64,000 nt of DNA from a virus: the IMG/VR virus record IMGVR_UViG_3300037317_000025, positions 11,347 through 75,346 of that record. One strand, 5' to 3'. Shown piece after piece: positions 3,563 to 44,188 of this stretch. Within the stretch, counting starts at the first letter, position 1. The number at the start of each line of letters is the position of its first letter. A program made the position numbers and the translations under genes. The notes below the pieces were generated by a model. It did not search any database. It was not told the DNA's origin and saw nothing but the letters and a program-made list of their open reading frames with translations.

Positions 3563-3621
3563 CTCTCGTGGTTCCTTTCTGGTATCCGAGGGCGGGCGCG
3601 GTGCCCGCCTCGCTTGTCGCT
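3563..3621 (-). repeat. intergenic hairpin-SD element (near-identical copy at 4035-4094; related copies at 128-178 and 2282-2327)
   Basis: CGACAAGCG-AGGCGGGCACCGCGCCCGCCCTCG-GATACC-AGAAAGGAA-N-ATG on the minus strand. Confidence 0.85.
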
Positions 3622-3626
3622 GCCGA

Positions 3627-4034: not shown

Positions 4035-4101
4035 CTCTCGTGTTTCCTTTCTGGTATCCGAGGGCGGGCGCGGTGCCCGCCCTCGCTTGTCGCTACTTAC
4101 A

Positions 4102-4284
4102 CTACCGACCGAGCAATCGGGCGTACTTCTCTGTGGCGGCCTGCATAATAGCAGATATCAGAGCTTTCCTGTCCTGGTTCGTGTCGATACCATACACTGC
4201 GGCGCGCTGGCGAAGCTCCTCATCAGACAATTCCTTCAATCCGAACGTTTCCTGGTGGTGAGCAATCTGAATAGCTTCAAACAT
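4102..4284 (-). CDS. small hypothetical protein
   Basis: SD GAAAGGA downstream of promoter copy 4. Confidence 0.55.
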   Translation of the reverse strand: MFEAIQIAHHQETFGLKELSDEELRQRAAVYGIDTNQDRKALISAIMQAATEKYARLLGR

Positions 4285-8450: not shown

Positions 8451-8495
8451 AAGGTTGTGTGGACCAGCCCGCCGGAGTTGCACCGGCTCTCTCAA

Positions 8496-9152: not shown

Positions 9153-9245
9153 CGCTGCGATTACGCCAATATCTACGGGTATTATAGCATAATGAAAAAA
9201 AAGACTGCCCGAAAGCAGCCATTTGTCCTCAACTCAACTCACCTT

Positions 9246-9779
9246 ACCGCGCATTGACCATTGCAACGCCAGTGCAGCCCAGGACATCGGCGCTCATCAT
9301 CCTCTTGCACCCTGCTCAACCGCGCGTTGACCATTGCAACTTAGTCCTGGCGGCGGGTGGTACAGTTGTACCATTGCCCTTGCACCCTGCTCAACCGCGC
9401 ATTGACCATTGCAACGTCGGGCTGTGACCTCATAGCGTTGCGTGTACTTGTTCTTGCACCCTGCTCAACCGCGCATTGACCATTGCAACAACAATGAAGG
9501 CGCTGCTGCAGGAGCACGACGAGCTTGCACCCTGCTCAACCGCGCATTGACCGTTGCAACGTGATGAGTTCCAGTCCTGGCTGATCCTCATTATACTTGC
9601 ACCCTGCTCAACCGCGCATTGACCATTGCAACTGCTGCTGCTGATATACACAGGCTTGCCCAGGAAGCTCTTGCACCCTACTCAACCGCGTGTTGACCAT
9701 TGCAACATATGTTTGACGATTGCAACGATGCTCACAACTCTCCTTGCACCCTGCTCAACCGCGCATTGACCATTGCAAC
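9246..9779. CRISPR. CRISPR array: 7 full 37-bp repeats, one 5'-truncated repeat, 7 spacers (34-38 nt)
   Basis: repeat CTTGCACCCTGCTCAACCGCGCATTGACCATTGCAAC at 9304, 9379, 9453, 9524, 9596, 9670, 9743; last 22 nt only at 9246-9267; unique spacers of 36, 38, 37, 34, 35, 37, 36 nt. Confidence 0.97.
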
Positions 9780-11245: not shown

Positions 11246-11251
11246 ATAATG

Positions 11252-11290
11252 ATTATAGCACATTGCACACATAGTTGCAAGTGCTATAAT
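11252..11290. promoter_or_regulatory. overlapping divergent promoters forming an inverted repeat (effector leftward, HTH-terL rightward)
   Basis: ATTATAGCAC...GTGCTATAAT; minus strand TTGCAA-17-TATAAT, plus strand TTGCAC-16-TATAAT, both with TGn. Confidence 0.8.
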
Positions 11291-11326
11291 AGGGATAGCA
11301 CAAACAAGATACAAGGTGAGGTTGAC

Positions 11327-11554
11327 ATGGTAAGATGGGCACTCAAGGAGATCGCAGAGCCGGAGCGCTGGTCGGCGCGGCGGTTGGCAAAAGAGTCGGG
11401 GTTGTCGTATAGTGCAGTGTATTACATCTGGGCGAATAAAACGCGCCGGGTGGATTTCGATACGCTTGAGAAGCTCTGCCGAATACTCAAGGTCGGGCCG
11501 GGTGATTTGATTGTCTGCGACGAACCACAAAACACCACAACTCCGCATCCCTAG
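11327..11554 (+). CDS. XRE/Cro-C1-type HTH transcriptional regulator
   Basis: SARRLAKESGLSYSAVYYIWANKTRRVDFDTLEKLCRILKVGPGDL; SD GGTGAGG. Confidence 0.85.
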   Translation: MVRWALKEIAEPERWSARRLAKESGLSYSAVYYIWANKTRRVDFDTLEKLCRILKVGPGDLIVCDEPQNTTTPHP

Positions 11555-12767
11555 ACTGCGCCCGGATCAATCGGCCATCGCCCGCCACCCGGCGAAGCGA
11601 CAAATCGTGGCGATGGGGCGGCGCTGGGGCAAGACCGTGCTGGGCGGGGCGCTGGCGCTGGCGTGCGCGGCGAACGGCGCAAAGGTTGCATGGGTTGCGC
11701 CGACCTACAAGAACAGCAGGCCGTTGTGGCGATATTGCGAACAATCAGTCGCCCACCTGAAACGCACACCCTATGTCGAGGTCAACAAGTCCGAGCGAAC
11801 CGTCACCTTCCCGCAGACCAATGGCAGCATCGCTATCTACAGTGCAGACAATGCCGATTCGGCTCGCGGCGAGTCGTTCGATCTGGTCGTCATCGACGAA
11901 GCCAGCAGGATTAGCGAGGATGCCTACCAGGCCGTCTTTGAGCCAACCGTGGCCGACCGCGACGGGATAATCCTGCTCATCAGCACACCGCTTGGCCGCA
12001 ATTATTTTTGGAAACTCTGGCAACAAGGCCAACTCGCGGAGAACCACCACCGTATCAAATCCTGGCAGGCTCCGAGCAACGCTAACCCGATGCCAGGTAT
12101 TCAGCGGGCATTCCATCTGGCGAAGGAACACACGCCGGAACGCACGTTCTTGCAGGAATGGATGGCGCAATTTCTGGACGAGGCCGGGGTGTTTCGCTTT
12201 GTCTACGACCGCGCCATCGCCGCGCCGCTTGCCCAGGGCGAGGAGGGGCGCACGTATGTCTACGGCTGCGACTGGGCGGGCAACAGCGGACAGGGCGACT
12301 TCACCGCCTTTGCCGTGATGGACGCGGAACGCAAGACACTGGTGCATCTCGACAGGTTCCACGGCACGAGCTACGAACAGCAGATGAACCGCCTGCTGGG
12401 GCTGGCGCAGCGCTTCCCGCCGACGGCGATTGTGGCCGAGGTGAACTCGATGGGCGGGCCGGTGTTCGAGCAACTGGTCAACGCAGAACTGCCGATGGTG
12501 CCGTGGGTCGCCAGCAACGCCACCAAGAAGGTCGGTGTTGAGGCGCTGCAACTGGCACTGGAGCAGGGCACGATCACGCTGCTGAATGAGCCGACGCTTG
12601 TCCACGAGATGACCGCGTATGAAGCCAGCAGCACGGCGAGCGGACTGGTGCGCTATTCTGCGCCGGAGGGCGATCACGATGACTGCGTGATGGCGGTGAT
12701 GATGGCGTGGCTGGGCTGCCTGAACAGTGGGCCGATGCTGCTGAGTGAGGGCGCGGGGCGGTATTAG
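11511..12767 (+). CDS. terL: terminase large subunit
   Basis: Walker A GRRWGKT, Walker B VVIDEA, ISTP, nuclease YGCDWA...GDFTA and HDDCVMA. Confidence 0.93.
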   Translation: MSATNHKTPQLRIPRLRPDQSAIARHPAKRQIVAMGRRWGKTVLGGALALACAANGAKVAWVAPTYKNSRPLWRYCEQSVAHLKRTPYVEVNKSERTVTFPQTNGSIAIYSADNADSARGESFDLVVIDEASRISEDAYQAVFEPTVADRDGIILLISTPLGRNYFWKLWQQGQLAENHHRIKSWQAPSNANPMPGIQRAFHLAKEHTPERTFLQEWMAQFLDEAGVFRFVYDRAIAAPLAQGEEGRTYVYGCDWAGNSGQGDFTAFAVMDAERKTLVHLDRFHGTSYEQQMNRLLGLAQRFPPTAIVAEVNSMGGPVFEQLVNAELPMVPWVASNATKKVGVEALQLALEQGTITLLNEPTLVHEMTAYEASSTASGLVRYSAPEGDHDDCVMAVMMAWLGCLNSGPMLLSEGAGRY

Positions 12768-13176: not shown

Positions 13177-14082
13177 TCAGTCCCTCCCCGCCAAACTCTC
13201 ATGGACAAACCCCCACTGGTCGCGCTCGCCGCCAAGCCAGAGCCAGCGCCCCCTGCCGCCGGTGGCATCGGCAACCACGCCGCGCACCTGGAATGCCTCT
13301 CCCGGCTCCAGCCACCAGCGATGGATGCTATTCGGGTCGTCGCCCAGGTGGGCAGCAAAGGCCGACTGCGTGGTCGGCCCCGTGCGGATGACCGCCTTGT
13401 CCCACGGGAACGGCCCATTGCCGATATGGTCGATCACGCGGTAGGACTTCGTGCAATCCGGCTCCGGCGTGGTGCCTGCGAAGTGCCGCTGCCAATAGTC
13501 GCGGAAGATCGGCACGAAATACTCCGGCGTAATTTGTCGCCCTGGACACGTCTTTTCGTTCGTGTAGTCCCGGTGCATCGAGATACCACCACCCCACTTC
13601 GTGTACTCAAGCTCAAACGTGCCGAGGCGCTGCTTCAGCACACACACGGCGTGCGCCACGTTGCGGGCCACCGCGTCCGGCCAGGGCACCTTGTCGTAAT
13701 AGCCGATGACCTCAATGCCGATGGAATAACCCCACTTGCCACCCTGCTGATAACTGTTGCCGTGCCCTGCGTGGATGCCCTCGTAATACATCGGGGTCAT
13801 CACCCAGATGTAGGTTTCGTCGATGAACAGGTGCGGGCCGCGATCCCAATGGAGATGGTCGCGGTAGTAGCACATAATCCCATCGAGTCGGTCTTTGCGC
13901 TGCTCATAGGTGCCCTGCCAGTCGTTCAACGGGTTGCGGTCGATGGGCGCGTCGGCGGTGTCGGGCACCGCCGTGTGGTGCAAGACAACGAAATCAGGCG
14001 GCACCGGGCCGAAGTCGTAGTCGGTCACGTAATCGGCAAAGGCGCTGGACAGAAAGCCAGTGCCTTCGTACAAGAAAGGCAT
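13177..14082 (-). CDS. endolysin, N-acetylmuramoyl-L-alanine amidase (Amidase_2/PGRP-like)
   Basis: VVLHHTAVP, GPHLFID, SIGIEVIG, HRDY...KTCPG zinc-binding motifs. Confidence 0.88.
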   Translation of the reverse strand: MPFLYEGTGFLSSAFADYVTDYDFGPVPPDFVVLHHTAVPDTADAPIDRNPLNDWQGTYEQRKDRLDGIMCYYRDHLHWDRGPHLFIDETYIWVMTPMYYEGIHAGHGNSYQQGGKWGYSIGIEVIGYYDKVPWPDAVARNVAHAVCVLKQRLGTFELEYTKWGGGISMHRDYTNEKTCPGRQITPEYFVPIFRDYWQRHFAGTTPEPDCTKSYRVIDHIGNGPFPWDKAVIRTGPTTQSAFAAHLGDDPNSIHRWWLEPGEAFQVRGVVADATGGRGRWLWLGGERDQWGFVHESLAGRD

Positions 14083-18324: not shown

Positions 18325-19130
18325 CGCTTACCTCGCTTTCGGCGGCAGTCACCTGCCACCAGCAGCACCTCGCCGTCGTCACCGATGGCCTTGCCGCGAA
18401 TACGGCTGGCAAGTCGTGGCTGATCCAGGTCGTCAAGCCGCATGTTGCTGGTGAAGAACGTCGCCCGGTTGTGCAGGTAGCGCTGGTTCACGATGCGGAA
18501 CAGCGTTTCCTCTGACCAGTCGGTCAGCATCTCTGTGCCGACATCATCCAACACCAGGAAGTCAGCGCCCTTGAGCGCGTTCAGGCGTTGCTCGGATGAG
18601 CCATCCTTGAAGCCGGTGCGAATAAACGCCAGCAGTTCCGGCAGCGAGGCGTAGCTAACCGTCCACTCCTGGTACGCAAGGGCGTTCGCTACGGCTGCGG
18701 CCAGGTGAGATTTACCCGACCCATACGGGCCTGCCAGATAACACCAATCGCCGGGTTGCTGCACATACTCACTCAGCAGGTGGTGAACATGTCGCAGAGC
18801 GGCGCGTTGCTGTTCCGGTGTGAACTGGCCGTCGTCCCATTCCACATTGCCCGACAACGAGCGCTCCGTGTCGAAGTTCTCCAGGGTGCAACTTGCGAGC
18901 GCCCCGGCTTCCTCGCGGAAGTGGTCGAGCAACTGCGCTGTACGCTTGCGGCGTTGTTCATTGCGCCTGCACTCGCATGGCATGCTGACATCGTTGCGCA
19001 CAAGCCAGCCAGCACCACCACACACATCGCAGGCAGGCTGCTCAGACCTGAAGGTAGGATGGATAACTCTTGGACTCGTCGCCTTCTTCGACGGCTGCGT
19101 CCGGGTGTCGTGATCGGTTTCTGCGGCCAT
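18321..19130 (-). CDS. DnaC/IstB-like ATPase (helicase loader)
   Basis: CxxC..CxC, GPYGSGKSHL, LVLDDVG, FTSN. Confidence 0.88.
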   Translation of the reverse strand: MAAETDHDTRTQPSKKATSPRVIHPTFRSEQPACDVCGGAGWLVRNDVSMPCECRRNEQRRKRTAQLLDHFREEAGALASCTLENFDTERSLSGNVEWDDGQFTPEQQRAALRHVHHLLSEYVQQPGDWCYLAGPYGSGKSHLAAAVANALAYQEWTVSYASLPELLAFIRTGFKDGSSEQRLNALKGADFLVLDDVGTEMLTDWSEETLFRIVNQRYLHNRATFFTSNMRLDDLDQPRLASRIRGKAIGDDGEVLLVAGDCRRKRGKR

Positions 19131-20079
19131 TGCGTGGCTCCTTTCGTGATGACTTCGTGTTGCTCTTCGGCTTCGGCGGTTCCAACTTCTCTGGCTGACG
19201 GTAACAATCCAGCATCCATTCCACGTTCGTCGGGTTCCTGCCCTGGGTCATGTAGCGCTGAAGCGTTGACCGCCAACGGTGCAGGTTCTCTTCGGTATCA
19301 CCGATGGCAACGACAATCGCCTGCCGTTGCACCTGGTTCGGTGAGCGTCCAGTTATCTCCCTGCACGCCCGCACCGCCGGGTGCGCGGACGAGCGCGGGT
19401 GCCCTGGCTGTGCATTGTGATTTTTGTCACGAGCGGCGGCGGGCATAGATTCTTTTTCGTCCGCCTCGCCTGATAGGGTTGGTGTGAGCGGTTCGGTCTG
19501 CGGTTGTGATTCCGGGGCAGGCAGTGTGTCGGGTTGTGGGTCGTCAGCAACAAACGTCGGTGGTGTGTCCGGCGCGGCGGGCGCGCAAGCGTCCCTCTCC
19601 GTAGGAGAGTCATGGTAGTCTCTGTGTAATCTCTGTTCTTCTATGATCTGCTCATTTTGCCCAGATCGTGATCTGCTCATTTTGCCCAGATCGATCTGCT
19701 CATTTTGCCCAGATCGTGATCTGCTCATTTTGCCCAGATCGGCTATGATGCGGTTTAATGCCTCATAATCAATGCTGTACCACTTGGTATGTTTCCAGTT
19801 CGATGCCTCTGGCTTGCAGGTTCGGACAACGCCAGATACCTCCAGTGACTTGATGATTCGTCGCAGGGTGCTTTCATCCCAAAAGTCGAATTGCTTGTGC
19901 CATTCGGCATACGTGTTGTACACCCAGGCATTACCCTGGTCGTCAATGTGTTTGCTGGTCTTCAGCCAGTAATGCAATTGTTGCAAGAACATTGCTGGCC
20001 TATCACCAATAGCCCTGGCAAGGGTTGGTAAAACCAGCAATGGTGACTCATCAATAAGCCCAGTAGATAAGCGGGTCAC
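19042..20079 (-). CDS. phage replication initiator protein
   Basis: FLQQLHYWL...WVYNTYAEW...TKWYSIDY wHTH motif; internal iterons; upstream of loader and helicase. Confidence 0.82.
   Translation of the reverse strand: MTRLSTGLIDESPLLVLPTLARAIGDRPAMFLQQLHYWLKTSKHIDDQGNAWVYNTYAEWHKQFDFWDESTLRRIIKSLEVSGVVRTCKPEASNWKHTKWYSIDYEALNRIIADLGKMSRSRSGQNEQIDLGKMSRSRSGQNEQIIEEQRLHRDYHDSPTERDACAPAAPDTPPTFVADDPQPDTLPAPESQPQTEPLTPTLSGEADEKESMPAAARDKNHNAQPGHPRSSAHPAVRACREITGRSPNQVQRQAIVVAIGDTEENLHRWRSTLQRYMTQGRNPTNVEWMLDCYRQPEKLEPPKPKSNTKSSRKEPRNGRRNRSRHPDAAVEEGDESKSYPSYLQV
19645..19740. repeat. replication-origin iterons, 4 x 23 bp
   Basis: GATCTGCTCATTTTGCCCAGATC exact at 19645, 19670, 19693 and 19718, inside the initiator gene. 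Confidence 0.9.
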
Positions 20080-27549: not shown

Positions 27550-28598
27550 AACCATACCACACTGATAATCACGTCACGCTCTACCACGGCGACGCGCTTG
27601 ACGTGTTGCGCACGTTGCCCGATGAGAGTGTGCATGCGGTGGTGACCGACCCGCCGTACTACAAAGTCAAAGAAGATGACTGGGATAGGCAGTGGACAAA
27701 GCGTGCGCATTATCTGGACTGGTTGCGCACAATTGTTGCAGAGTGGCAGCGGGTGTTGGTGCCAAATGGTTGCGTGTACTGTTTTGCGTCGCCGGATATG
27801 TCCACACACGTTGAGTTGCTAATTGCTGAGTATTTTGCCGTACTAAACAACATCAGATGGTACAAGCGCGATGGGTGGCACCAGAAAGCGCAAACCGATG
27901 CACTGCGGTCGTACCTGTCGCCCTGGGAGGCGTGCATTTTTGCTGAGCAGTACGGGAGTGATGGTATAGCACTCGGAGAAAGTCAGTATGCAAGCAAGTG
28001 CGATGCGTTGCGCGGGTTTGTGTTTGAGCCGTTGCGCGAATACCTGTCTGGTGAATTCAAGAAAATGGGGTGGCGCGGCGACGATTTGAATCGTATATGT
28101 GGTACTGCTTCGATGGCAGCACGCCACTATATAGCGCGTTCACAATGGTGTCTACCAACAAAAGAGCATTACAACTCGTTACAACGGGCAGCAAACGGGC
28201 AAGCACTCCGCTGCGAGTATGAAGCACTCCGCTGCGAGTATGAAGACCTCCGCTGCGAGTATGAAGACCTCCGCCGCGAGTATGAAGACCTCCGCCGCCC
28301 GTTTCAAGCGATGGCTCGCCACCGTGAGGACATGTGGCATTATCGCACAGTTGTACCGTATCCAGGCAAGCACCCGGCACAAAAACCGCTTGCAATGATG
28401 ATGGATATTATCGAGACAAGCACGCGAGTCGATGCGGTTATCCTGGATTGTTTTGCAGGCTCCGGCACAACCCTGGTTGCCGCTCGTGACCTGGGGCGGC
28501 GGGCTATCGGCATTGAGATGGACGCGGGGTACTGCGAGACGATTGTGGGCAGGCTCGCACAACAAGCACTGCCGCTGTTCGGAGAGGAGGAGGCGTGA
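27546..28598 (+). CDS. DNA methyltransferase (beta class)
   Basis: VVTDPPYYKVK, KHPAQKP, ILDCFAGSGTT. Confidence 0.92.
   Translation: MKPYHTDNHVTLYHGDALDVLRTLPDESVHAVVTDPPYYKVKEDDWDRQWTKRAHYLDWLRTIVAEWQRVLVPNGCVYCFASPDMSTHVELLIAEYFAVLNNIRWYKRDGWHQKAQTDALRSYLSPWEACIFAEQYGSDGIALGESQYASKCDALRGFVFEPLREYLSGEFKKMGWRGDDLNRICGTASMAARHYIARSQWCLPTKEHYNSLQRAANGQALRCEYEALRCEYEDLRCEYEDLRREYEDLRRPFQAMARHREDMWHYRTVVPYPGKHPAQKPLAMMMDIIETSTRVDAVILDCFAGSGTTLVAARDLGRRAIGIEMDAGYCETIVGRLAQQALPLFGEEEA
28201..28298 (+). repeat. 21-bp tandem repeat (about 4.5 copies) encoding LRCEYE(A/D) heptads
   Basis: unit CTCCGCTGCGAGTATGAAG(CA/AC). Confidence 0.9.
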
Positions 28599-31978: not shown

Positions 31979-32306
31979 AGACTACATTACCCAGACCCAG
32001 GACGATCTACGACTGCTCTCGGCGTTCGTCTCGGCACTCAAGTCGTACTTGCCGCAAGCGCGTAGCGCCATCGCGCTGAACCCGAAGCTGGCCGCGCAGA
32101 TACTTGAACAAATCCAGCAGCAGACGGACGAAGAAGAGGCGACGGTTGAGCGCCTGATCGGACGCCTGGGTGATCTGGAAACGATGCTGCAACGGGCTGA
32201 CGCGGCAAACGAGACAGAGCAACGCCTGGAGCGATTGGAGCAACGAGTAGACGCACTGGAGCAGCCTGCTGTAGTGCCGATAAGGGGGAAGGTAGATAAT
32301 GGATGA
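31953..32306 (+). CDS. coiled-coil hypothetical protein
   Basis: SD AGGAGG. Confidence 0.55.
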   Translation: MPRLRRGGRDYITQTQDDLRLLSAFVSALKSYLPQARSAIALNPKLAAQILEQIQQQTDEEEATVERLIGRLGDLETMLQRADAANETEQRLERLEQRVDALEQPAVVPIRGKVDNG

Positions 32307-32505
32307 CGAACGTATGACCATGAAATATGTCAACGCCATTGGCGTCATCGGACAGGTTTTTAGTTTGCACGAGGCGCGGCAAATCCAGAACTTGCCCTCA
32401 GATGACCTGTACGCGCAACTGGAGCAACGCGGTTGGTACTGGAACGGACAGACCTGGGCGCTGGTGACACAGGCGCGGGTTGTTGGCGAGGAGGTAGAGG
32501 CGTGA
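32299..32505 (+). CDS. hypothetical protein
   Basis: coupled ORF. Confidence 0.5.
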   Translation: MDDERMTMKYVNAIGVIGQVFSLHEARQIQNLPSDDLYAQLEQRGWYWNGQTWALVTQARVVGEEVEA

Positions 32506-33263
32506 CCACCATCACTTTCGACATTGAAACGCTGAAGTTTTTCAACGACACCGCCATCAAACGGATGCCGCGTGAAGCGCAGTTCATGGCACTGGAGTTC
32601 GGTTGCGCCGTCGCCTTCATCGACGACGAGCGCCGAGACTACGAAGGGCAGATGGGCGCGATTGATCTGTGGAACGATCTCATGCAGGCCGATACCATTG
32701 TCACCTTCAACGGCCTGTCGTTCGACCTGCCACTCGTGGCCTTCGAGTATGCCCGCGCCACGGGCGGCTACCCTGGCTGGCCGCCCGCTACGCAGATCGA
32801 CCTGCTGGACATTCCGAAGCAGGCCACCGGGCGCTGGTACAAGCTCGAAGAACTGGCCCAGGCGAACCTGGGTCGCGGCAAGACGGCGGACGGGTTCAAA
32901 GCCGCTGAATGGCTGCGCTCTGGCGATCCAGTGCAGATGCGCCAGGCGCTCGACTACTGCGCCGAGGACGTGCGGTTGACCGCCGCCCTGTGGAGGCTCT
33001 GCCTGGACGAACTGCTGATACTGCCACCGCAGCCTGCGAAAAAGAAGTACGACGGCTACTTGCTCGCCATCGACCCGCACGACGGCCAATGGACACAACT
33101 GCACCCGCAGTGGACACGAGCAGGCGCGCAGTGGGTGTTGATACACTCGGATCGGCGGACAATGAGCGGTGTGGGTGAACCACCGAAGGCGGCGTATGAT
33201 GATTGGATTGTGTGTCGCATTGCCGATAATGGCACCTGGACACGCGACTACGGAGAGGACTAA
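32502..33263 (+). CDS. RNase H-like DEDD 3'-5' exonuclease
   Basis: TFDIET, VTFNGLSFDLP, IDLL, YCAEDV. Confidence 0.82.
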   Translation: MTTITFDIETLKFFNDTAIKRMPREAQFMALEFGCAVAFIDDERRDYEGQMGAIDLWNDLMQADTIVTFNGLSFDLPLVAFEYARATGGYPGWPPATQIDLLDIPKQATGRWYKLEELAQANLGRGKTADGFKAAEWLRSGDPVQMRQALDYCAEDVRLTAALWRLCLDELLILPPQPAKKKYDGYLLAIDPHDGQWTQLHPQWTRAGAQWVLIHSDRRTMSGVGEPPKAAYDDWIVCRIADNGTWTRDYGED

Positions 33264-33476
33264 ATGACACACTCGTTCACCCACGGCGACCGCGTGCGGC
33301 TCATCGCAGACACACCCTACAGTGGGCACTGGGCAACCGTTGAGGATATAGCGGTCGCAAACGGCACCCGTCGCTACTATGTGCGGTTTGATGCGCCGCA
33401 CCTGAACGGCGATCCCGTGGAGGGCGTATGGGCGGACGAGTACCAACTGGAAAGGCTGACGGATGGAGCACGTTAA
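33264..33476 (+). CDS. small SH3/KOW-like protein
   Basis: FTHGDRVRL...YYVRFD. Confidence 0.5.
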   Translation: MTHSFTHGDRVRLIADTPYSGHWATVEDIAVANGTRRYYVRFDAPHLNGDPVEGVWADEYQLERLTDGAR

Positions 33477-33825
33477 AACATCAATCACCCTCACCCTGAG
33501 CGGTGAGGAAACGGACGCATTGGCTCGCGCCATGCAGTTATTTGGCAGCGAACTGCCGATCAAGCAGGCGCAGATACGTATTGACGCCGAAACCGAAGAA
33601 GAAGCCGACTGGCTACACGAGCGCCTGGACACCATCATCGGCACCTGCGACGACTCCATTGATGTGACGGCGACGGTTAAGCAAACACTGAAGCGGGACC
33701 GCATGACCGAAGTCGAATCGAAGCCCACGCCGATGGACACGCTCTGGCGCGACGACGACAGTGAGCACGCCGAACCGCGCATTACGCGGATGGTACCGAA
33801 CGAACGCGCACAGGAGGCGGGTTGA
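33463..33825 (+). CDS. hypothetical protein
   Basis: coupled ORF. Confidence 0.5.
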
Positions 33826-34679
33826 TGTCGGACTATGCAGGACAGGTGCTCGTGGACGCCGACGGGCTTGACGACTACCTGTGCGCTATCGGTCAGGTGT
33901 CGCTGCTCACTGCCGATCAGGAGATCGCCCTGGCGCAATGCATCGAGCAGGGCGACCAGGACGCCCGTGATCATCTGGCAAACGCGAACCTGCGCCTGGT
34001 CGTGAGTGTTGCCAAACGGTACATCAGAACCGCCAACAAGTTGACCCTGGGCGATCTGATCCAGGAAGGAAACATCGGTCTGTTGCGGGCCGTGGACAAG
34101 TTCGACTGGCGCAAGGGAAACCGCTTCTCAACCTACGCAACCTGGTGGATCAGGCAGGCGATCACCCGCGCCATAGCAGACCACAACACAACGATCCGTA
34201 TACCTGTTCATATGCGCGAGCAAATCATAAAAATAAAAAAGGACTACTCGAATGAACTTGACTCGCCGGAGAAGATCGCCGCTGTCGCGGGTTGTGATTT
34301 GCCACGGGCACAGCGTATATCTGATGCGCTGCACATTCAACCGTATTCGCTGGATATGGCGGCATACGATGACAGCAAGAAAAGTCCTTCCATTGGCGAC
34401 CTGATTGCAGACACGTCTAACATCGAAGAGCACGTTGAACGCAACCTGGTATGCGAGCGAATACAACATGCCCTGGATGCCCTGCGCCGATACACACATG
34501 ATGGCAAACGCAAGGCGCGCATTCTGGAGTTGCGCTTCGGATTGGATACCGGGCAGCAACAGACACTCGAACAGGTCGGGCGCGTGTTCGGTATTACCCG
34601 CGAACGCGCCCGCCAATTGGAAAGGGCGGCGCTGTCTGAAGTGAAGGAACTTTTGCCTGATTTAGAAGGAGTGTTTTGA
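33822..34679 (+). CDS. sigma70-family RNA polymerase sigma factor (RpoD/RpoS-like, lacking region 1.1)
   Basis: [65 protein letters not shown]. Confidence 0.93.
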
Positions 34680-37288: not shown

Positions 37289-38406
37289 AACTCTCAGCCC
37301 TACAAGAAAACCTGAAGCACGCCCTGGCTACGGTGTCGCACGCCGTTGCCAGTAAAAGCCCGCTACCCGTCCTGTCAAACGTGCTGCTCCAGGCAGACGA
37401 GCACGGCCTGCACGTCGCTGCTACCGACCTGGAAATCGGCATGCGCCGCACCGTCCCGGCACAGGTTGAAGTCCACGGTAGCACCACCCTGCCCGCAAAA
37501 CTATCCTCCGACGTGATCAATGGCCTGCCCAACGACAAGGTAACGCTCACCCTGGACACGGATACACAGACAGTCAAAGTGGAATGCGCCCGCTCAACCA
37601 GCAATATTCACGGGATTGCCGCTGAGGACTACCCGAAGCTGCCAGAAATGGCAAACCAGCAGGGCAGCGTCACCTTGCCCGCGCCAACCCTGAAGCGAGC
37701 GATTGAGCAGGTGGCGTTTGCCGCAGCGAAGGACGAATCGCGCCCGGTGCTGGCTGGTGTGCTGGTGCGACTGAATGGCGACTGCATGACCCTGGCTGCC
37801 GCTGACGGGTTCCGGTTGGCGGTTAAGAAGATTGTCCTGCCCGAAGTGGTTACGGATGATCAGGTTGAGGTCATCATTCCCGCTCGCGCCCTGGACAACC
37901 TGGCACGGGTGCTGGGTGACGGCGACGTGACGCTCACCTGGAACGCCTTCACCCTACAGGCCACAACCGACGCAGCCGTGCTCTACAGCCGCCTGATCGA
38001 CGGCAAATTCCCCGACTTCGAGCGTATCATCCCGCAGCAGCACACGACCCGCAGCGTGCTCGACGTGAAGGCGTTCCAACGAGCGCTGAAGCTGGCAACC
38101 CTGTTCGCCAGCGCCAGCCAGAATATTGTCAAGATCACGGTTGAACCCGGCAGTGACGAACCGGGTAAGCTGGTGCTTTCAGCGAACGCCGCCGAGGTGG
38201 GCGACAACGCCGGTGAAGTTGAGGCGATGGTCGAAGGCGACGGCGGGCAGATCGCGGTCAACTGCAAGTTCCTGGCCGACGCGCTGGCGGCGATGGGCAC
38301 CGCGCAGGTGACGTTTGAACAACAGACCGCGCAGAACCCCGGCGTGCTTAAGCCGGTGGGCGAGGATGATTATGTGCATGTCGTTATGCCGATGACGATT
38401 CGGTAG
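37285..38406 (+). CDS. dnaN: DNA polymerase III beta sliding clamp
   Basis: LPVLSNVLL, ATDLEIG, RPVLAGV, AADGFRL, SRLIDGKFPDFERIIP, VVMPM. Confidence 0.96.
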   Translation: MKLSALQENLKHALATVSHAVASKSPLPVLSNVLLQADEHGLHVAATDLEIGMRRTVPAQVEVHGSTTLPAKLSSDVINGLPNDKVTLTLDTDTQTVKVECARSTSNIHGIAAEDYPKLPEMANQQGSVTLPAPTLKRAIEQVAFAAAKDESRPVLAGVLVRLNGDCMTLAAADGFRLAVKKIVLPEVVTDDQVEVIIPARALDNLARVLGDGDVTLTWNAFTLQATTDAAVLYSRLIDGKFPDFERIIPQQHTTRSVLDVKAFQRALKLATLFASASQNIVKITVEPGSDEPGKLVLSANAAEVGDNAGEVEAMVEGDGGQIAVNCKFLADALAAMGTAQVTFEQQTAQNPGVLKPVGEDDYVHVVMPMTIR

Positions 38407-38430
38407 CGACGGCACGTAAGGTAACACAAA

Positions 38431-38465
38431 GCCCCTGGTGCGATGCCCGGGGTTTTACTTTTTTT
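38431..38465 (+). terminator. intrinsic terminator after dnaN
   Basis: GCCCCTGG...CCCGGGGT hairpin followed by a T-run. Confidence 0.7.
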
Positions 38466-38518
38466 GCCCTACTAAACTGCCGCTCCTGCGCCGCTTTAAA
38501 GAAATTGTCCTGCGTTCA

Positions 38519-38548
38519 CTTGACAACCTCTTGACAAAACCGTATGAT
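38519..38548 (+). promoter_or_regulatory. par operon promoter TTGACA-17-TATGAT with an 11-bp-spaced direct repeat CTTGACAA
   Basis: hexamers at 38520 and 38543; repeat copies at 38519 and 38530. Confidence 0.7.
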
Positions 38549-38582
38549 ACGAACAGCGTTCTATCAATAAAGGGGAGGGTTT

Positions 38583-39557
38583 ATGTTGGTACACGGCTTG
38601 AATGTCGGCCACGGATTTACCAAGTACGTGATATTGAACAAAGACGGGAGCGAGCACTGTTCGCTGGTGTTCCCATCGGCAATTGCCCACGCTGCGCCAG
38701 AACTGGCGGGCGCGATTGACAACGCGACGGTTACGGAACACGACGGGCAACAGTTCTGGACAGGTGAAGATGTGGAGATCGGATCGCCATTGACCGACCT
38801 GTCTGTCGGGCGACTCGAAGATGGCCGCTTTATCCCCGTGCTGGTACGCAGTGCATTGCAACGTGCCAGCCTGAACGGTGCTGGTCCAGGCGTGTGCGTG
38901 ACCGGGTTACCTGCGAACCAGGCCGAGGATATGGGCAAAGCCCAGGCGCTCGGTGCCCGCTTGCGCGAAGGCTCGGACAAGTTCACAGAGATTCGGGTGA
39001 TCGCAGAGCCGCTCGGCTTGCTCTATTCCGCCCTACTCAACAGCACGGGGGCGGTCGTTGGCGATGAGGCGCTGGCGTCCGGGCGCGTGGGCGTCGTGGA
39101 TATGGGGCATCTCACAATAGACGTGAGTGAGGTGCTGTGCAGGCGTCCGGTGAGTGGGTCACTGGACACCTGGGACATCGGCACAAGCAATCCACTAAGC
39201 GCATTGCGAAGCCTCCTCAGCAACTTCTCGCAGCGCAACCTGACGCTGCACGAAGCCGATCAAGCCATCCGCGAGAAAGCACTGAGGATACGTGGGCAAC
39301 GGGTGACGTTGCCGGACGGATGGGACACGCCCCTATTGCGGCACGGCGAAACGGTGGCCGCCCGCCTGACCGAACGTTGGAGAAATGGCGCTCACCTGGA
39401 CATTATTTTGATCGGCGGTGGCGGGGCGGAATTACCGCAACTAACCGACGCAATCCAGCGCAAGTTTCCGCACGCTACCGTGGTCGCAGAGCCGCAAATG
39501 GCCGTTGCACGTGGCTATGCGTATCTGGCGCAGCGCATAGCAAAGGCGGGCAAATGA
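38583..39557 (+). CDS. ParM/StbA actin-like partition ATPase
   Basis: GLNVGHGFTK, VTGLP, VIAEP, VVDMGHLTID, IGGGGA, PQMAVARG. Confidence 0.85.
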   Translation: MLVHGLNVGHGFTKYVILNKDGSEHCSLVFPSAIAHAAPELAGAIDNATVTEHDGQQFWTGEDVEIGSPLTDLSVGRLEDGRFIPVLVRSALQRASLNGAGPGVCVTGLPANQAEDMGKAQALGARLREGSDKFTEIRVIAEPLGLLYSALLNSTGAVVGDEALASGRVGVVDMGHLTIDVSEVLCRRPVSGSLDTWDIGTSNPLSALRSLLSNFSQRNLTLHEADQAIREKALRIRGQRVTLPDGWDTPLLRHGETVAARLTERWRNGAHLDIILIGGGGAELPQLTDAIQRKFPHATVVAEPQMAVARGYAYLAQRIAKAGK

Positions 39558-39859
39558 CAAAGGGGACGGTCTATGTGCGCATGACCGAGGCAATGCGTGC
39601 TGACCTGGAAAAGCACGGGCAATTGTCGGACGTGGTGCGCGGGGTGTTGCTGCTGGGCCTGCGCCAGATAGGTGAGGACATCTCGCCGCATCAGGGCGAT
39701 CTGTACAACTCGCTCGCAGACTCCACGCTTTCCGACGCATTGCGCCGGGAACTGACAACCCTGGCACAAACACCGCAACCGCAACCGCAGCAGGCACCGC
39801 CGCCCGCGCCCGCGAGCGACGACGGTGACGATTTTTGGGACGTAGGAATTAGCGTATAA
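39554..39859 (+). CDS. putative ParR-like ribbon-helix-helix adaptor
   Basis: TVYVRMTEAMRADLEK..QLSDVVRGVL; small gene coupled to parM; disordered acidic tail. Confidence 0.55.
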   Translation: MTKGTVYVRMTEAMRADLEKHGQLSDVVRGVLLLGLRQIGEDISPHQGDLYNSLADSTLSDALRRELTTLAQTPQPQPQQAPPPAPASDDGDDFWDVGISV

Positions 39860-39971
39860 TGGGCAGCGAATAATCAGGGCAACCCCTGGTGTGGTCGGAC
39901 ACACCAGGCGCGAGGAACACCACAGGACTGTTCCCGGTTGCCCAGCACACAGCATACCACAGGAGGCAATC

Positions 39972-40586
39972 ATGAAGCATACACAGGCGCAGGAACGCGC
40001 CATCTACTTCTTTCGCGCTCTGGCCGAGCGCACGGGCGCGAACTGGACGGACGCAAACAGCCAGGACGTAGCCGACTGGATCACGATTATGGAACGCGAG
40101 ATCGCCAGCAAGGTGGCACGTTCCATCGCACATAGTTTAACGCAGTCGCTCACCAATTTGTCACACGGCGGCGGCGATCTCCCTACGTTTAGCGACGCCG
40201 CACGACAGCAACCGGCGCAGAGTGACACACTTGACGAACTGCGTTCGATGCTGTTAGAACGCGACGGAACGCCTGCTGAGCCGGAACCTGAACCGCCTGC
40301 ACAGCCTGCTGCTGTCACACAGCCGTTGCCCGTCCAACAGCAGACGCAGCGCTGGGACGTGCGCAGCACGAACGACATGCATCGCCTGGTGCAAGAAGTA
40401 ACAGAAGCCCGTCGCGCCCTGCGCGAATATCGGGAAGGTGAACAACCGAACCCGAATGTCGAGCGCGGCCTGACTCGACTGGTAGAAGTTGCCGAGCGGG
40501 AACTGCACGACTACCAGCAGGCACGCGAAGCCCTGCTCGGTAGCACCTACGCCACGAACTATGCACAGGAGGCGCAACGTGGATGA
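39972..40586 (+). CDS. hypothetical protein
   Basis: SD AGGAGG. Confidence 0.6.
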   Translation: MKHTQAQERAIYFFRALAERTGANWTDANSQDVADWITIMEREIASKVARSIAHSLTQSLTNLSHGGGDLPTFSDAARQQPAQSDTLDELRSMLLERDGTPAEPEPEPPAQPAAVTQPLPVQQQTQRWDVRSTNDMHRLVQEVTEARRALREYREGEQPNPNVERGLTRLVEVAERELHDYQQAREALLGSTYATNYAQEAQRG

Positions 40587-41757
40587 TTACCGCTACTATG
40601 AGCTTGCAGAGCGCTATCGGCTCTATGTGGCCTCGCGTCGCATGCTGACGGTACGCGACCTGCTGATCTTGTTTGTGTTGCTGTTCCTATTGTTGCAACA
40701 CGGGAACAGTTTCCTGGCAAGTGTTCGCCCTGTGTTCGTTGGCATCCCCGCGCTGAATACGGCAAATCTGGCCGGGTTGTTCGCTGTTCCTGGGGGCGGT
40801 GTTCAGCGCGATATAACAGTCAAAGTAGACGGCGAGCCAGTCGGAACAGGAACACCGCCAACCGCAGGCGACTACACCCTCAAGGCTGCGCCCAGCCTCA
40901 CGCCGGAGCAGATCGACACCATCCTGGCCGACGCAGGCTCGCCTGCCGAGGGCACCGGGCGCATCTGGCACGAGGAAGGAGTGAAGCGCGGCATTGACCC
41001 GGCGTTCGCCATCGCGTTCTTTATCCACGAGAGCAGCGCCGCCACGAACCCCGCTTGGGCCGGATGGAAGCCCGACGGCACCCACACGCATAATGTGGGC
41101 AATATCATCTGCGCGGGCTATCCAACCTGTTACGGACGTTTCCGTGATTATCCCTCGTGGCAGGCAGGTATTGCCGACTGGTATCGCCTGATTGATGACG
41201 AATATATTCAGGAGCGCGGCACCACCACCGTGGCGGAGATTATCCCGGTCTATGCACCTGCCTTCGAGAACGACGTTGATCTGTATGTCAAAACGGTTGA
41301 ACGACTGGTCGATGGGTGGCGCGGTGGTGGTGAGCGACCTACTGGTTCGCCGCTCGGCGTTGCGCCTGTCGTGCTCACACAGGGCTACGCCGTGGGCACC
41401 CACGCGCCCGCTGCGACGTGGGGCGCAATTGACCTGGCCGTCGCGGGCGGGCCGGGTGCCACGCACGGGCAACCGATCTATGCGACCCACGCCGGAACCG
41501 TCACTATCACGCCCGATTCCTGGCCGGGTGGCAATCATGTCTGGGTGATGGGTGAAACCTACAGGACAGGCTACGCACACCTGGCGAGCTTTGTGGTGCA
41601 GGATGGGCAGGCGGTGCAGGCAGGCGCACAGATCGGCACCGTCGGCAGCACCGGCAAATCAAGCGGCCCGCACCTGGATTATCAAGTCTGGCAACGGCAG
41701 GGCGGGCAGTGGGTGAATGTCAACCCGTTGGATTATGGCGCACTGGAGGTAAGATGA
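40579..41757 (+). CDS. membrane-anchored peptidoglycan hydrolase (lysozyme/glucosaminidase-like plus M23 peptidase)
   Basis: N-terminal TM; GIDPAFAIAFFIHES...HNVGNI; H...AIDLA, YAHL, GSTGKSSGPHLDY. Confidence 0.85.
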   Translation: MDDYRYYELAERYRLYVASRRMLTVRDLLILFVLLFLLLQHGNSFLASVRPVFVGIPALNTANLAGLFAVPGGGVQRDITVKVDGEPVGTGTPPTAGDYTLKAAPSLTPEQIDTILADAGSPAEGTGRIWHEEGVKRGIDPAFAIAFFIHESSAATNPAWAGWKPDGTHTHNVGNIICAGYPTCYGRFRDYPSWQAGIADWYRLIDDEYIQERGTTTVAEIIPVYAPAFENDVDLYVKTVERLVDGWRGGGERPTGSPLGVAPVVLTQGYAVGTHAPAATWGAIDLAVAGGPGATHGQPIYATHAGTVTITPDSWPGGNHVWVMGETYRTGYAHLASFVVQDGQAVQAGAQIGTVGSTGKSSGPHLDYQVWQRQGGQWVNVNPLDYGALEVR

Positions 41758-42554
41758 TGCAGGATTTTGAACTGGCCCGTGCCGAACAGCAGCAGTCGCG
41801 ACACTACGCCCTGTTCGCGGGTACATTGGCACTGTCACTGGTGGGCTTGATCGCAATGGCGATGTCGGCCCTGCACTGGTGGCGGGTGCAATCGCACCTG
41901 ACCAGCGACCCCATGATGGCAGCAACCTTCACAGCGATTATGGTGATTGCGCCGCCAGTGCTCACCGCGTTTGTCATCCCCTGGTCACCCGGCGGGATGC
42001 TACTCCAGAAGATCAACGCGCAGACCTGGGGCTTCTGGGTCATTGTGGCCTGCGCCGTGTTCCTGGTGCTCTATTCGTATGATACCCAGGTGCGCTGGTG
42101 GTCGGCACAACCCACTGTAGCCGAGGCAGGGGTCGCATGGCAGCAGGCACTTGTGGGGGTGGTTGGCTATATTATTATCCCCGCGCTGCTCTGGACACCC
42201 GTCACCTCTGGAGAACTGGTAGAACGCATTCAGCAAGATCGCCTGGTGCGCAACCTCAAGCTGCAACTGAACGGCGAGGAAGCCATCCTGCGGGCGCGGC
42301 TCTTGCAAATCCAGCAGTACACACTTCACCAGGGAGCGCAGATGTTGGCCGAACAGCAGCCTGACGTGCGGGTGGTGCTCAACGAACTGGTGTCGGGAAT
42401 TGACGCGAATATGGCGGAGCTTGGCGGGAGTGTGCATCGCATGAGCGGCGTGATGCTGCCGTACAAGAATATTGGCGACAATGACAGCACCCGCGCTTAT
42501 CTGGACTATGTGGCCGAGGCGCTGGCGGGTCGGCGGAATCTTCTTGACCAATAG
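41754..42554 (+). CDS. multi-pass membrane protein with coiled-coil tail
   Basis: four hydrophobic segments. Confidence 0.7.
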   Translation: MMQDFELARAEQQQSRHYALFAGTLALSLVGLIAMAMSALHWWRVQSHLTSDPMMAATFTAIMVIAPPVLTAFVIPWSPGGMLLQKINAQTWGFWVIVACAVFLVLYSYDTQVRWWSAQPTVAEAGVAWQQALVGVVGYIIIPALLWTPVTSGELVERIQQDRLVRNLKLQLNGEEAILRARLLQIQQYTLHQGAQMLAEQQPDVRVVLNELVSGIDANMAELGGSVHRMSGVMLPYKNIGDNDSTRAYLDYVAEALAGRRNLLDQ

Positions 42555-42584
42555 TGGTATAATCACGAGAAACGAGGTGAATAG

Positions 42585-43055
42585 ATGACGGTTCGTTTTG
42601 CAAGCAGTGTACCAATTGATCGGCGGCGACTGGACACATTTCGGAAGCCGTTCCGTATCCTGTTCGGGGCCGTATTCCTGGGCTATACTGGCTATGCAGT
42701 GGCTTTATGGGTCCACGAGTTCACCGCGCCTGTGGTTGGTCCCGCAGTCGTGTTCTCGATACCGATAACCTACATGCTCGGTTTTTTGGCGGCACTGTTG
42801 ATTATGGTGGCGGAATGGTATCTTGCCGAGTCGCGCTGGTACTGGTACGCCATCCCGTTTATCCCCGATGTCTGGTTCACCTACGATCTCACCGAGTCGT
42901 GGGTACGACTGTTTGTCGATGTTCACATGGCGGGGGAACCAGTGGGGATAATACAGGGCGTGACAGTCGGGGTTTCGCTGCTCATTGCTGTTGTGTCGGC
43001 ACGATTTGGAGAGATTTTATTATTCGGAAAACGCAGGAAGGATGGGCATCCATGA
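42585..43055 (+). CDS. multi-pass membrane protein
   Basis: several hydrophobic segments. Confidence 0.7.
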   Translation: MTVRFASSVPIDRRRLDTFRKPFRILFGAVFLGYTGYAVALWVHEFTAPVVGPAVVFSIPITYMLGFLAALLIMVAEWYLAESRWYWYAIPFIPDVWFTYDLTESWVRLFVDVHMAGEPVGIIQGVTVGVSLLIAVVSARFGEILLFGKRRKDGHP

Positions 43056-44188
43056 CAGACCTTGAGGCATTCATCGGGGTAACGCTTTCGATCCTGGGGT
43101 TCCTGGCCCTGATCGTGGGGTATGGTCGCTTGCTTGACTGGTGGAATATCCGACGCGGCATCGATCCCATAACCGGCGAACCCTTGCACGTACAAACACC
43201 GCCGAAGGATGTCTCGCCATCTGCTCCTGCCTCCACTCCTGTTCGTGTAACTTCGCCCACACCCACCGCGCCACCCATTGAACACATCACACCACTTGCC
43301 ATTGCCCGCAGTGACAACATCCTGATTGTCGGCGGCAAGGGCAGTGGTAAGACCACGCTCCTGCACGCGCTGTTGGCGTTGCGCGCAGGCGATCATCTGG
43401 TATTCGACCCGCACAACTACCCCGGCAAATGGCAGCATCAGGTGGTCGGTGGTGGCGGTGAGTATGAGGAGATACGCCAGTATCTTGATGAAGCGTCCCG
43501 CGAACTCAAACGCCGCCAGCAGCAACTTAACGAGGGGATAGTGACCGAAGGGCAATTCCCGCACCTGACGCTGGTGGCCGACGAATGGCGGGCGATTGTC
43601 CAGGAGCTTGACGGAGCCGGGAAAGAGATCGCCCGGTTGCTGACGCAGGGGCGCAAATTCGGTATCGCGTTCCTCGCGGTGTCACACAACGACACCGTGG
43701 CCTCGCTGGGGGTGGCGGGCGATAAAGAAGCGACGATGGCCTCGTTCGACTGGATCATCTACACGGGGGCGTTCGCGGCAAAACGGTGGCAACAGCGCGG
43801 GATTGACACGCCGAGCTTTACCACACCAACGGGCACCACCTCGCCGCTCTGGGTCGTGGCCCACAACACCGGCTCTGCGACTGACCACCTGCTCGATATG
43901 CGCAACCTGGACAAGTCACAACACAACGCACAGCCTCAGCAACAGGCCATTCTCCTGCCGTCGGTTGCCCTGGAATATACCGCACCTCCGCAGCCTGGCG
44001 CGCCAATCTGGACAGAGCACCACATCAAAGTAGCGCAATGGCTCGCGCAGGAGCCAGAGATCAGCAACCGTGAGATCGCCCGCCGCCTCTGGAATAGCAA
44101 AAGCGGTGGTGGTAACCTGGCAATGCAGGCGGGCGAGATTCGCCGCCAGGTCGAGGCGGCGATAACCGAACCGATCAGCCAGCCCTGA
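43052..44188 (+). CDS. membrane-anchored FtsK/HerA/VirD4-like ATPase with C-terminal HTH
   Basis: N-terminal TM, Walker A GGKGSGKTT, Walker B LVADEW, QGRKFGI, ISNREIARRL. Confidence 0.75.
   Translation: MTDLEAFIGVTLSILGFLALIVGYGRLLDWWNIRRGIDPITGEPLHVQTPPKDVSPSAPASTPVRVTSPTPTAPPIEHITPLAIARSDNILIVGGKGSGKTTLLHALLALRAGDHLVFDPHNYPGKWQHQVVGGGGEYEEIRQYLDEASRELKRRQQQLNEGIVTEGQFPHLTLVADEWRAIVQELDGAGKEIARLLTQGRKFGIAFLAVSHNDTVASLGVAGDKEATMASFDWIIYTGAFAAKRWQQRGIDTPSFTTPTGTTSPLWVVAHNTGSATDHLLDMRNLDKSQHNAQPQQQAILLPSVALEYTAPPQPGAPIWTEHHIKVAQWLAQEPEISNREIARRLWNSKSGGGNLAMQAGEIRRQVEAAITEPISQP

Follow-up and report, generated by a model that had tools for sequence, protein, structure and literature searches.

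What is an actin-like partition pair doing in one operon with a membrane-anchored, FtsK-like ATPase on the genome of a tailed phage? To our knowledge, the inheritance or spread of low-copy episomes and prophages along connected cells is understood in mechanistic detail only for Streptomyces plasmids. The operon in question occupies positions 38583–44188 of a 64,000-nt window, which comprises bases 11347–75346 of a 75,346-bp IMG/VR virus record (IMGVR_UViG_3300037317_000025) from a tidal-flat metagenome; the record, which CheckV puts at ~71% complete, is linear and without a terminal repeat. An original prediction, made from the letters alone, had taken the locus for a ParMR-like pair joined to a cell-wall hydrolase, membrane proteins and an FtsK/HerA-like ATPase, and had proposed that it may spread phage DNA between cells as Streptomyces TraB and Spd proteins spread plasmids. 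We found that ParM, its adaptor candidate and the ATPase recur as a trio in at least four lineages of elements, a linkage that is new here. At slightly less than an even chance, we read the operon as a single unit for handling DNA, serving a temperate tailed phage of filamentous Chloroflexales whose genome is not integrated.

The operon consists of seven plus-strand genes, the last of which ends 4 nt before a convergent tail-fibre gene. Its parts and control signals are as follows (TM, transmembrane; RHH, ribbon-helix-helix; positions are those of the window):

38433–38461, plus strand: terminator-like hairpin with a T-run (6-bp stem with 5 GC pairs, then TTTTACTTTT), closing the upstream DnaN (sliding clamp) operon
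38520–38548, plus strand: sigma-70-type promoter, TTGACA-17-TATGAT, with 11/12 consensus matches
38550–38561, plus strand: short palindrome with a GAACnnnGTTC core, between the −10 box and the ribosome-binding site
38583–39557, plus strand: ParM-like actin-fold ATPase, 324 aa (phrog_691 'partition protein', E = 1.4e-26, full length)
39554–39859, plus strand: RHH-like adaptor candidate (ParR analogue), 101 aa, overlapping the ParM stop by 4 nt
39972–40586, plus strand: soluble helical protein, 204 aa, absent from the gene list of the original prediction
40561–41757, plus strand: membrane-anchored bifunctional wall hydrolase with a TM helix at residues 28–46, a glucosaminidase-like domain and an M23 domain
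41754–42554, plus strand: membrane protein, 266 aa, with four TM helices by hydropathy and a cytoplasmic coiled-coil tail of ~115 aa
42585–43055, plus strand: membrane protein, 156 aa, with three TM helices, translationally coupled to the ATPase
43052–44188, plus strand: membrane-anchored FtsK-clade P-loop ATPase, 378 aa, with its true start at 43052

Because the genes overlap (by 4 or 26 nt) or lie 30 nt apart, with a single gap of 112 nt as the exception, we treat them as one operon. Every feature listed in the original prediction was found where it had been placed, including the terminator and the new promoter behind it. A second TTGACAA lies 11 nt downstream of the first in the promoter, and the promoter, the duplicated TTGACAA and, with one change, the palindrome are kept in a sister phage (L065). 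The palindrome is a candidate operator for the RHH-like protein. The G+C content of the operon is the same as that of the rest of the phage. Its arrangement is not due to chance, because syntenic parts of it are met again in other elements. Neither a megablast search with the whole module nor a tblastn search with the ATPase found a match in a phage collection.

The first gene product is predicted to be a ParM/Alp actin-like partition ATPase, as had been proposed. Besides the full-length PHROGs match, it scores above the Pfam cut-off for PF21522 (MreB-like_C, 31.1 bits), just below that for PF17989 (25 bits) and under the cut-off of NCBIfam ParM (4e-11); its nucleotide-binding motifs GHGxxK, DxGHxTxD and GGGGAE are invariant across five homologues. 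The second product is suggested to be the ParM adaptor by its overlap with the ParM stop, by an N-terminal strand-helix-helix pattern and by an acidic-aromatic C-terminal tail, which is identical in the sister phage (57% identity) and similar in kind in a second ParM-bearing locus, L028 (phmmer 0.0012). Complex prediction lends weak support to this pairing, with a score of 0.50 against 0.02 for the best control. Among 80 solved complexes, 58 passed the same mark, as did 2 of 110 mismatched pairs, but passing scores of 0.60 or lower comprised just 7 of the 80 solved complexes and both of the mismatches. The runs shared at least 59% of contacts with a partner pLDDT (predicted local distance difference test) of at least 56, on an alignment that we built. 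Because ParM–ParR complexes have already been solved, the pass may reflect likeness to them. The experimentally confirmed Bacillus plasmid-prophages IEBH, Bp8p-C and B83 are partitioned by a ParM with an RHH or helix-turn-helix (HTH) adaptor (PMC11526630).

The last gene product has, in this order, a TM helix at residues 4–22, a Pro/Thr-rich linker, a P-loop motor and three C-terminal helices, and carries the Walker A (GGKGSGKT), Walker B (DEW) and GRKFGI motifs. Residues G94, K100, D177/E178 and R201/K202 in the Walker A, Walker B and Arg-Lys motifs are invariant in 68 relatives. Sequence libraries returned sub-threshold matches only (FtsK_SpoIIIE, TrwB, HerA and EccCb), and a family profile searched against PDB sequences gave P-loop-level matches only. 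An AlphaFold2 model built with 13 homologues has a mean pLDDT of 79.9, rising above 90 in the motor. In VIA-align comparisons, in which rows within one Z unit count as ties, this model matched TcpA of pCW3 (Z = 16.3; 201 residues aligned, root mean square deviation 3.5; Foldseek E = 6e-7), FtsK motors (Z = 14.7–15.5), EccC/EssC (14.3–14.5), HerA and STIV B204 (about 12), and VirB11 and PilT (10–11). Because the predicted fold matches TcpA, FtsK and EssC/EccC best, well above HerA, VirB11 and PilT, we place the modelled ATPase in the FtsK clade of the FtsK/HerA P-loop ATPases, which agrees with its earlier description as FtsK/HerA-like (best FtsK row, Z = 15.5). A match to a terminase family (phrog_2666, 5e-7) was rejected; the Terminase_6N gene of this phage sits at 11511–12767.

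Within the FtsK clade, the family profile aligned by hhalign with the FtsK/SpoIIIE protein of phage PaV-LD (95.5%, E = 1.6e-8), with pIJ101 Tra (89%, E = 2.3e-6) and with the C terminus of E. coli FtsK (87%, E = 3.7e-6). Because the alignment to pIJ101 Tra is no better than that to E. coli FtsK, the family is, as judged from these profiles, a separate branch and not a TraB. The TraB analogy drawn in the original prediction is not supported by these profiles.

Two further functions can be weighed against this fold, and we regard both as minor possibilities. A protein-export motor like EssC/EccC, or a TcpA-like coupling protein for a channel encoded elsewhere, would move proteins or relaxase-bound single-stranded DNA; the Z scores of EssC/EccC and TcpA and the weak NCBIfam match to EccCb are in its favour, and Gram-positive conjugation systems also combine an anchored two-domain hydrolase with polytopic membrane proteins (TcpG and TcpH of pCW3). 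We consider it highly improbable in view of a single motor domain, compared with two or three in EssC, of carrier elements of 5.5 kb and ~10 kb that are too small for a type IV or type VII secretion system, and of searches of the ~71%-complete, 75-kb record for a VirB4-type ATPase and a relaxase (PF12846, PF03432 and PF01076) and for WXG-like substrate genes, none of which found a match; an NCBIfam VirB4 match in the record is at P-loop level only. An exclusion or defence device, in which the ATPase and its membrane partners would block or expel the incoming DNA of competing phages or plasmids, is very unlikely. Such cargo is frequent on mobile elements, HerA-type defence ATPases are among the fold matches (Z about 12) and PADLOC gives the ATPase a weak mad8 (MADS system) match (E = 1.3e-8), but this match spans the P-loop core only, no other MADS component was found and the best fold matches are FtsK-clade pumps, not HerA defence complexes. 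The fixed position of the ATPase after ParM and the adaptor, and its presence on 5.5-kb plasmids that carry little else, favour a core role in maintenance or transfer.

The linkage of ParM to this ATPase recurs well beyond the present phage. At the same genome position, before the convergent tail-fibre gene, the sister phage L065 carries three directly adjacent genes, for a ParM with 89% identity, an adaptor with 57% and a divergent ATPase of the family (hhalign 98.3%, E = 2e-14); it lacks the hydrolase and both membrane-protein genes. The ATPase there (9274–10770, 498 aa) has two TM helices and is very divergent, and because ParM and the adaptor are nearly unchanged beside it, the swap is cassette-like. 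In locus L028, the same element as viral record L070, ParM (40% identity, E = 3e-66) is accompanied by an RHH-like gene, a homologue of the three-TM protein, the ATPase and another three-TM protein. Three elements of ~10 kb (L029, L030 and L027, the last being identical with L069) hold, in this order, an integrase, a primase-like gene, ParM, the ATPase, a two-TM protein and a winged-helix regulator. Since the ATPases of the ParM-linked lineages sit in different sub-branches, the pairing of ParM with the pump has repeatedly been preserved or newly made. Related variants of the module were seen in contigs of four tidal-flat sequencing runs. The expected co-occurrence of the cluster elsewhere holds for ParM, the adaptor and the ATPase, in other mobile elements, but not for the hydrolase. 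The papers searched contained no account of a partition operon that leads into such an ATPase, nor of this ATPase family, or its linkage to ParM, in Chloroflexota.

Small membrane proteins form a second recurrent association of the ATPase. Among 57 family loci examined, 36 had enough flank for a neighbour count, and in 28 of these 36, not all of which are independent, the ATPase has, no more than 700 nt away and on the same strand, a gene for a protein with two or more TM helices; for other genes in these loci the figure is 17%. These partners fall into at least five unrelated sequence families. The two that had been called polytopic in the present operon do contain four and three TM helices. 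Homologues of the three-TM protein stand immediately upstream of the ATPase in L028/L070 (26% identity, E = 8e-7) and L039. The four-TM protein has a weak relative in L066, and its look-alikes in the Atlas are unnamed clusters from Chloroflexota and viruses (scores 0.91–0.94). With respect to Spd proteins, polytopic partners are present and their position is conserved, but comparison of the four-TM protein with pIJ101 SpdB showed no sequence similarity. Spd proteins are generally poorly conserved. The 204-aa protein matched nothing in Pfam, PHROGs, NCBIfam, PADLOC or the Atlas, and none of the related loci contains a homologue of it.

The hydrolase has a different history. It contains the TM helix and the M23 domain that had been noted (Peptidase_M23, E = 6e-20), together with a glucosaminidase-like domain that scores only E = 0.0098, although PF01832 is present in close homologues. 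Chromosomally encoded Glucosaminidase+M23 proteins with a TM anchor, from Oscillochloris, Chloroflexus, Chloroploca and Viridilinea, are 60–76% identical to it, and it carries the motifs of that host clade, GTHAP..WGAID and PHLDY, the latter replacing PHLH. We do not call the M23 domain inactive on account of HLD in place of HxH and a Trp at the expected first His; an invariant His lies 10 residues upstream, and HLD is conserved throughout the host clade. The sister phage has no counterpart of the hydrolase, and a search beside the other family ATPases found none, bar one marginal M23-level match (L041, phmmer E = 1.8e-4). On sequence grounds, the hydrolase is a recently host-derived add-on and not part of the module core, contrary to its earlier inclusion in a spreading module. 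Contig depth in mat metagenomes is highest over the hydrolase and clamp genes, as expected because both are host-like.

These same genes carry the main rival to our reading, which holds that the operon joins two unrelated units: a partition system made of ParM and its adaptor, and a lysis or exit cassette in which the hydrolase would be a signal-anchored endolysin and the two membrane proteins holin-like, with the ATPase an accessory. In PaV-LD, ORF123 (TM helix and M23) and ORF124 (a membrane protein) adjoin an FtsK/SpoIIIE gene and an endolysin, are bacteriolytic on over-expression and were read experimentally as lysis proteins (PMC9096620). The M23 domain falls mostly among endolysin and tail-lysin families in PHROGs, and the absence of the hydrolase from the sister phage is what would be expected of variable cargo. 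Against these points stands an amidase-like candidate endolysin at 13177–14082, conserved in related viral contigs and located elsewhere in the phage, as the original prediction had said of the endolysin. The three-TM protein, translationally coupled to the ATPase, is still found at that place in integrative elements that are not phages and have no need of lysis; membrane partners adjoin the ATPase in the majority of countable loci; most of the larger loci hold integrase, recombinase, partition or replication genes and not phage structural genes; and the operon promoter is of an early sigma-70 type, beside replication genes. We find a whole operon built this way distinctly unlikely, and the hydrolase and perhaps the four-TM protein may nevertheless serve lysis.

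To see how far the ATPase extends, we searched exhaustively with its profile and recovered 2,672 family representatives at E ≤ 0.001 and 1,551 at E ≤ 1e-10. The Pfam cut-off for a specific family was reached by 0 of 68 sampled members, and a second profile search, made in a word-indexed protein set, and a cluster look-up added no named members; as its profiles define it, the family is large, uncurated and without a Pfam model. Its close relatives in species genomes are solely from Chloroflexota (Chloroflexaceae, Oscillochloris, Caldilineaceae, Ardenticatenaceae and Anaerolineales). The family is present in 45 of 167 genomes of the Oscillochloris order (Chloroflexales; 27%), compared with 13 of 401 in a phylum-wide sample, and 12 of those 13 carriers also belong to Chloroflexales; this enrichment is based on genome overlap between the order-wide and phylum-wide searches. 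Oscillochloris sp. ZM17-4 has seven copies (contigs C109, C122, C7, C154, C106, C177 and C165), several at contig ends, which suggests a repeated active element that breaks the assembly.

The settings of the family are integrative elements and small plasmids without relaxases. A tyrosine integrase lies within 8 kb of the ATPase in 15 loci, and further recurrent neighbours are large serine recombinases, ParA, DnaB and a DUF927 primase. A search of 72,556 plasmid records gave five matches only, all to small plasmids of filamentous cyanobacteria (Nostoc PCC 7120 zeta, Calothrix, Tolypothrix and Moorena). Three loci of this kind (L005, which is Nostoc PCC 7120 plasmid zeta with its ATPase at 2957–4129, L006 and L007) are 5.5–24 kb long, have no relaxases and encode a distant family ATPase just downstream of small membrane or hypothetical genes. 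All five matching plasmids are typed non-mobilizable, as is pIJ101, a known TraB-type conjugative plasmid. A tblastn search of plasmids with the ATPase found no Streptomyces plasmid.

This distribution bears on the proposal that the operon performs conjugation or spreading proper of the Streptomyces type, with the ATPase as a TraB and the membrane proteins as Spd, exporting double-stranded DNA (dsDNA) to element-free cells or filaments without virions. The architecture and the type of host morphology are shared, the carriers lack relaxases and are typed as pIJ101 is, and high prevalence with multiple copies in Chloroflexales suggests efficient horizontal movement. SpdB2 homologues carried by actinophages were proposed by Thoma and colleagues as possible aids to the spread of phage DNA (PMC4447253), and FtsK-like genes in Streptomyces phages are mentioned in the literature without a function. 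We nonetheless think this proposal unlikely to be right: the family is not nearer to Tra/TraB than to FtsK, the expected SpdB similarity and 8-bp clt-type repeats were not seen, the tight linkage to ParM favours inheritance over export, and a virion-producing phage already has a route of transfer. The likeness to TraB and Spd appears to be architectural only.

The carrier itself is a tailed phage. Besides the terminase, the record encodes a portal, a major head protein, a tape measure and a 1,117-aa tail-fibre-like protein; its replication and partition genes are DnaB, DnaC, a DnaD/O-like initiator, a ParB-like protein, the sliding clamp and an RNA ligase, and further genes encode two methylases, a sigma-70 factor and a Cro/CI-type HTH protein. 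Four tandem 24-nt iterons (19644–19735) within the DnaD/O-like initiator gene (19042–20079, minus strand) are probably a replication origin of lambda-like layout. Searches of the ~71%-complete record for a tyrosine integrase or large serine recombinase (PF00589 and PF07508) gave no match, and the earlier observation that no relaxase, VirB4 or integrase is visible extends to all 75,346 bp of it. Virion genes thus occur together with ParM, a ParB-like gene and a DnaB/DnaC/DnaD-like set with iterons on a linear record in which no integrase was matched, and a plasmid state of the phage is plausible. A host in a filamentous lineage of Chloroflexota (Chloroflexales) is supported because the hydrolase closely resembles chromosomal proteins of Chloroflexales; the close relatives of the ATPase family come from the same phylum, in line with the host that had been proposed. 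A search of the 401 Chloroflexota genomes with the major head protein found distant relatives only (at most 46% identity).

Other features of the phage were noted in passing. A clustered regularly interspaced short palindromic repeats (CRISPR) array of eight 37-nt repeats with a period of ~74 nt (9243–9781) abuts a gene for a 597-aa TnpB/Cas12f-like protein (9755–11548, minus strand; NCBIfam guided_TnpB, 3e-60; PADLOC Cas12f, 5e-47), and the two together look like a phage-borne compact type V-like system. The sigma-70-type factor (33822–34679, plus strand) is complete, with regions 1.2, 2 and 4, and lies upstream of genes for a dCTP deaminase, the RNA ligase and the sliding clamp. Four tandem 21-nt repeats (28206–28288) are found within an N6_N4 DNA methylase gene. 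Two minus-strand products, of 655 aa (32007–33974) and 490 aa (7023–8495), have no match in Pfam, NCBIfam or PADLOC; the sole match of the latter is an unnamed PHROG.

How might the operon work as a single DNA-handling unit? The adaptor would bind phage DNA near the operon promoter, and ParM filaments would drive sister copies towards the poles of the cell, where the septa of a bacterial filament lie. There the ATPase, probably hexameric and kept in the membrane by its TM helix together with the three- and four-TM partners, would pump phage dsDNA through the closing or closed septum, while the host-derived anchored hydrolase, an add-on in this phage, might loosen septal peptidoglycan locally. 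The minimal benefit would be faithful inheritance of a low-copy episome along the filament. In this scheme the gene content, the fold and the synteny are shown, and what is pumped, at which site, in which direction and by what oligomer is our inference.

Several observations weigh against such a unit. On the partition side, the 101-aa protein matched neither RHH nor any other family in Pfam, PHROGs, NCBIfam and further searches; the label RHH is provisional for this reason, and of the earlier description the gene, the overlap and the strand-helix-helix pattern stand, but a family match does not. Positions 38300–40100 contain no parC-like iterons or other repeat array, just the two TTGACAA copies and one palindrome, so that the predicted ParMR-like pair is borne out in its ParM match and adaptor slot but not in an iterated centromere. 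ParM is not nearby in most family members, and the coupling is thus not universal. On the pump side, EssC/EccC protein-export ATPases match the fold nearly as well as DNA pumps do, and no clt-like clustered 7–9-mer repeats were found in or near the operon. The predicted C-terminal HTH is represented by three helices in the full model, but the domain is poorly conserved and reaches a pLDDT of only 59 when folded alone, which makes it no more than a candidate for DNA binding. The lysis roles of the PaV-LD proteins beside an FtsK-like gene also count here, and an integrase may lie in the missing part of the record.

Spread into neighbouring element-free cells with the same machinery is possible. 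In a bolder version, ParM would deliver episomal phage genomes to the septa, and the mini-FtsK with its membrane partners would pass dsDNA into the neighbour cell, so that a filament is colonised without virions; we hold this to be improbable, and virion-free spread of a Streptomyces-like kind, while compatible with the data, is speculative. If it is true, it would be a second, independently evolved counterpart of intramycelial spreading in Streptomyces, coupled to an actin-like cytomotive system, and a temperate phage and the small integrative elements with the module could colonise a whole filament.

Distant relatives of the family that emerges occur in a cyanophage as well as on small plasmids from filamentous cyanobacteria, and the family has repeatedly been wired to an actin-like partition pair. 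Should the pump act on its element's own DNA at septa, it would join cytoskeletal segregation to septal translocation in a new way and would open a route of gene flow in phototrophic mats that is invisible to surveys keyed on relaxases and VirB4. Should it serve lysis or exclusion instead, a widespread gene set of mobile elements has still been named.

Comparison with characterized systems places the operon between several of them. It differs from conjugation by type IV secretion in that a VirB4-family ATPase and a relaxase were not found in the ~71%-complete record. The Tcp locus of pCW3 (Clostridium perfringens) offers the best structural match, TcpA, itself a membrane-anchored FtsK-like ATPase, and likewise has a two-domain wall hydrolase (TcpG) and a polytopic membrane protein (TcpH); identity to TcpA is ~16%, and the record has no VirB4-like TcpF, relaxase or oriT proteins. 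Chromosomal FtsK/SpoIIIE shares the anchor, the Pro-rich linker, the RecA-type motor of the same clade (Z = 14.7–15.5) and a C-terminal helical domain, and acts at septa, as we propose for the present ATPase. The latter is much smaller, has one TM helix where FtsK has four and no recognisable winged-helix gamma domain, and is encoded by mobile elements, often in several copies.

As regards a phage lysis cassette, the operon has an anchored hydrolase followed by two membrane proteins, for which PaV-LD offers a precedent, but the three-TM protein accompanies the ATPase in non-phage elements and the amidase lies elsewhere. The ORF129L–ORF122L operon of PaV-LD (NC_016564; PMC9096620) comes from a tailed phage of another filamentous phototroph (Planktothrix) and contains an FtsK/SpoIIIE-annotated protein related to the family, small membrane proteins and a TM-anchored M23 peptidase with 34% identity in the M23 domain. 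Its gene order is different, it includes a separate endolysin and has no adjacent ParM, and its M23 domain retains the canonical HxH motif.

Streptomyces Tra/TraB proteins (pIJ101, pSVH1; PMC4447253) have an N-terminal anchor, an FtsK-type motor and a C-terminal helical domain, are accompanied by translationally coupled small polytopic membrane proteins, and have as carriers plasmids and integrative elements that lack relaxases and reside in filamentous bacteria, all of which is mirrored here. They are 648–772 aa long, compared with 378 aa, and their C-terminal winged helix reads 8-bp clt repeats, for which no counterpart was found in or near the operon; the present module is from another phylum, linked to ParM and carried by a virion-forming phage. 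Type II ParMRC of R1 and the systems of Bacillus phages IEBH, Bp8p-C and B83 share the actin-fold ATPase, the overlapping small adaptor gene and a promoter of their own, and the Bacillus plasmid-prophages are also temperate tailed phages without a visible integrase. The adaptor here differs in having no RHH model match and no iterated centromere beside it. Unlike in those systems, here and in at least three other lineages the partition operon runs on into a membrane-anchored FtsK-type ATPase.

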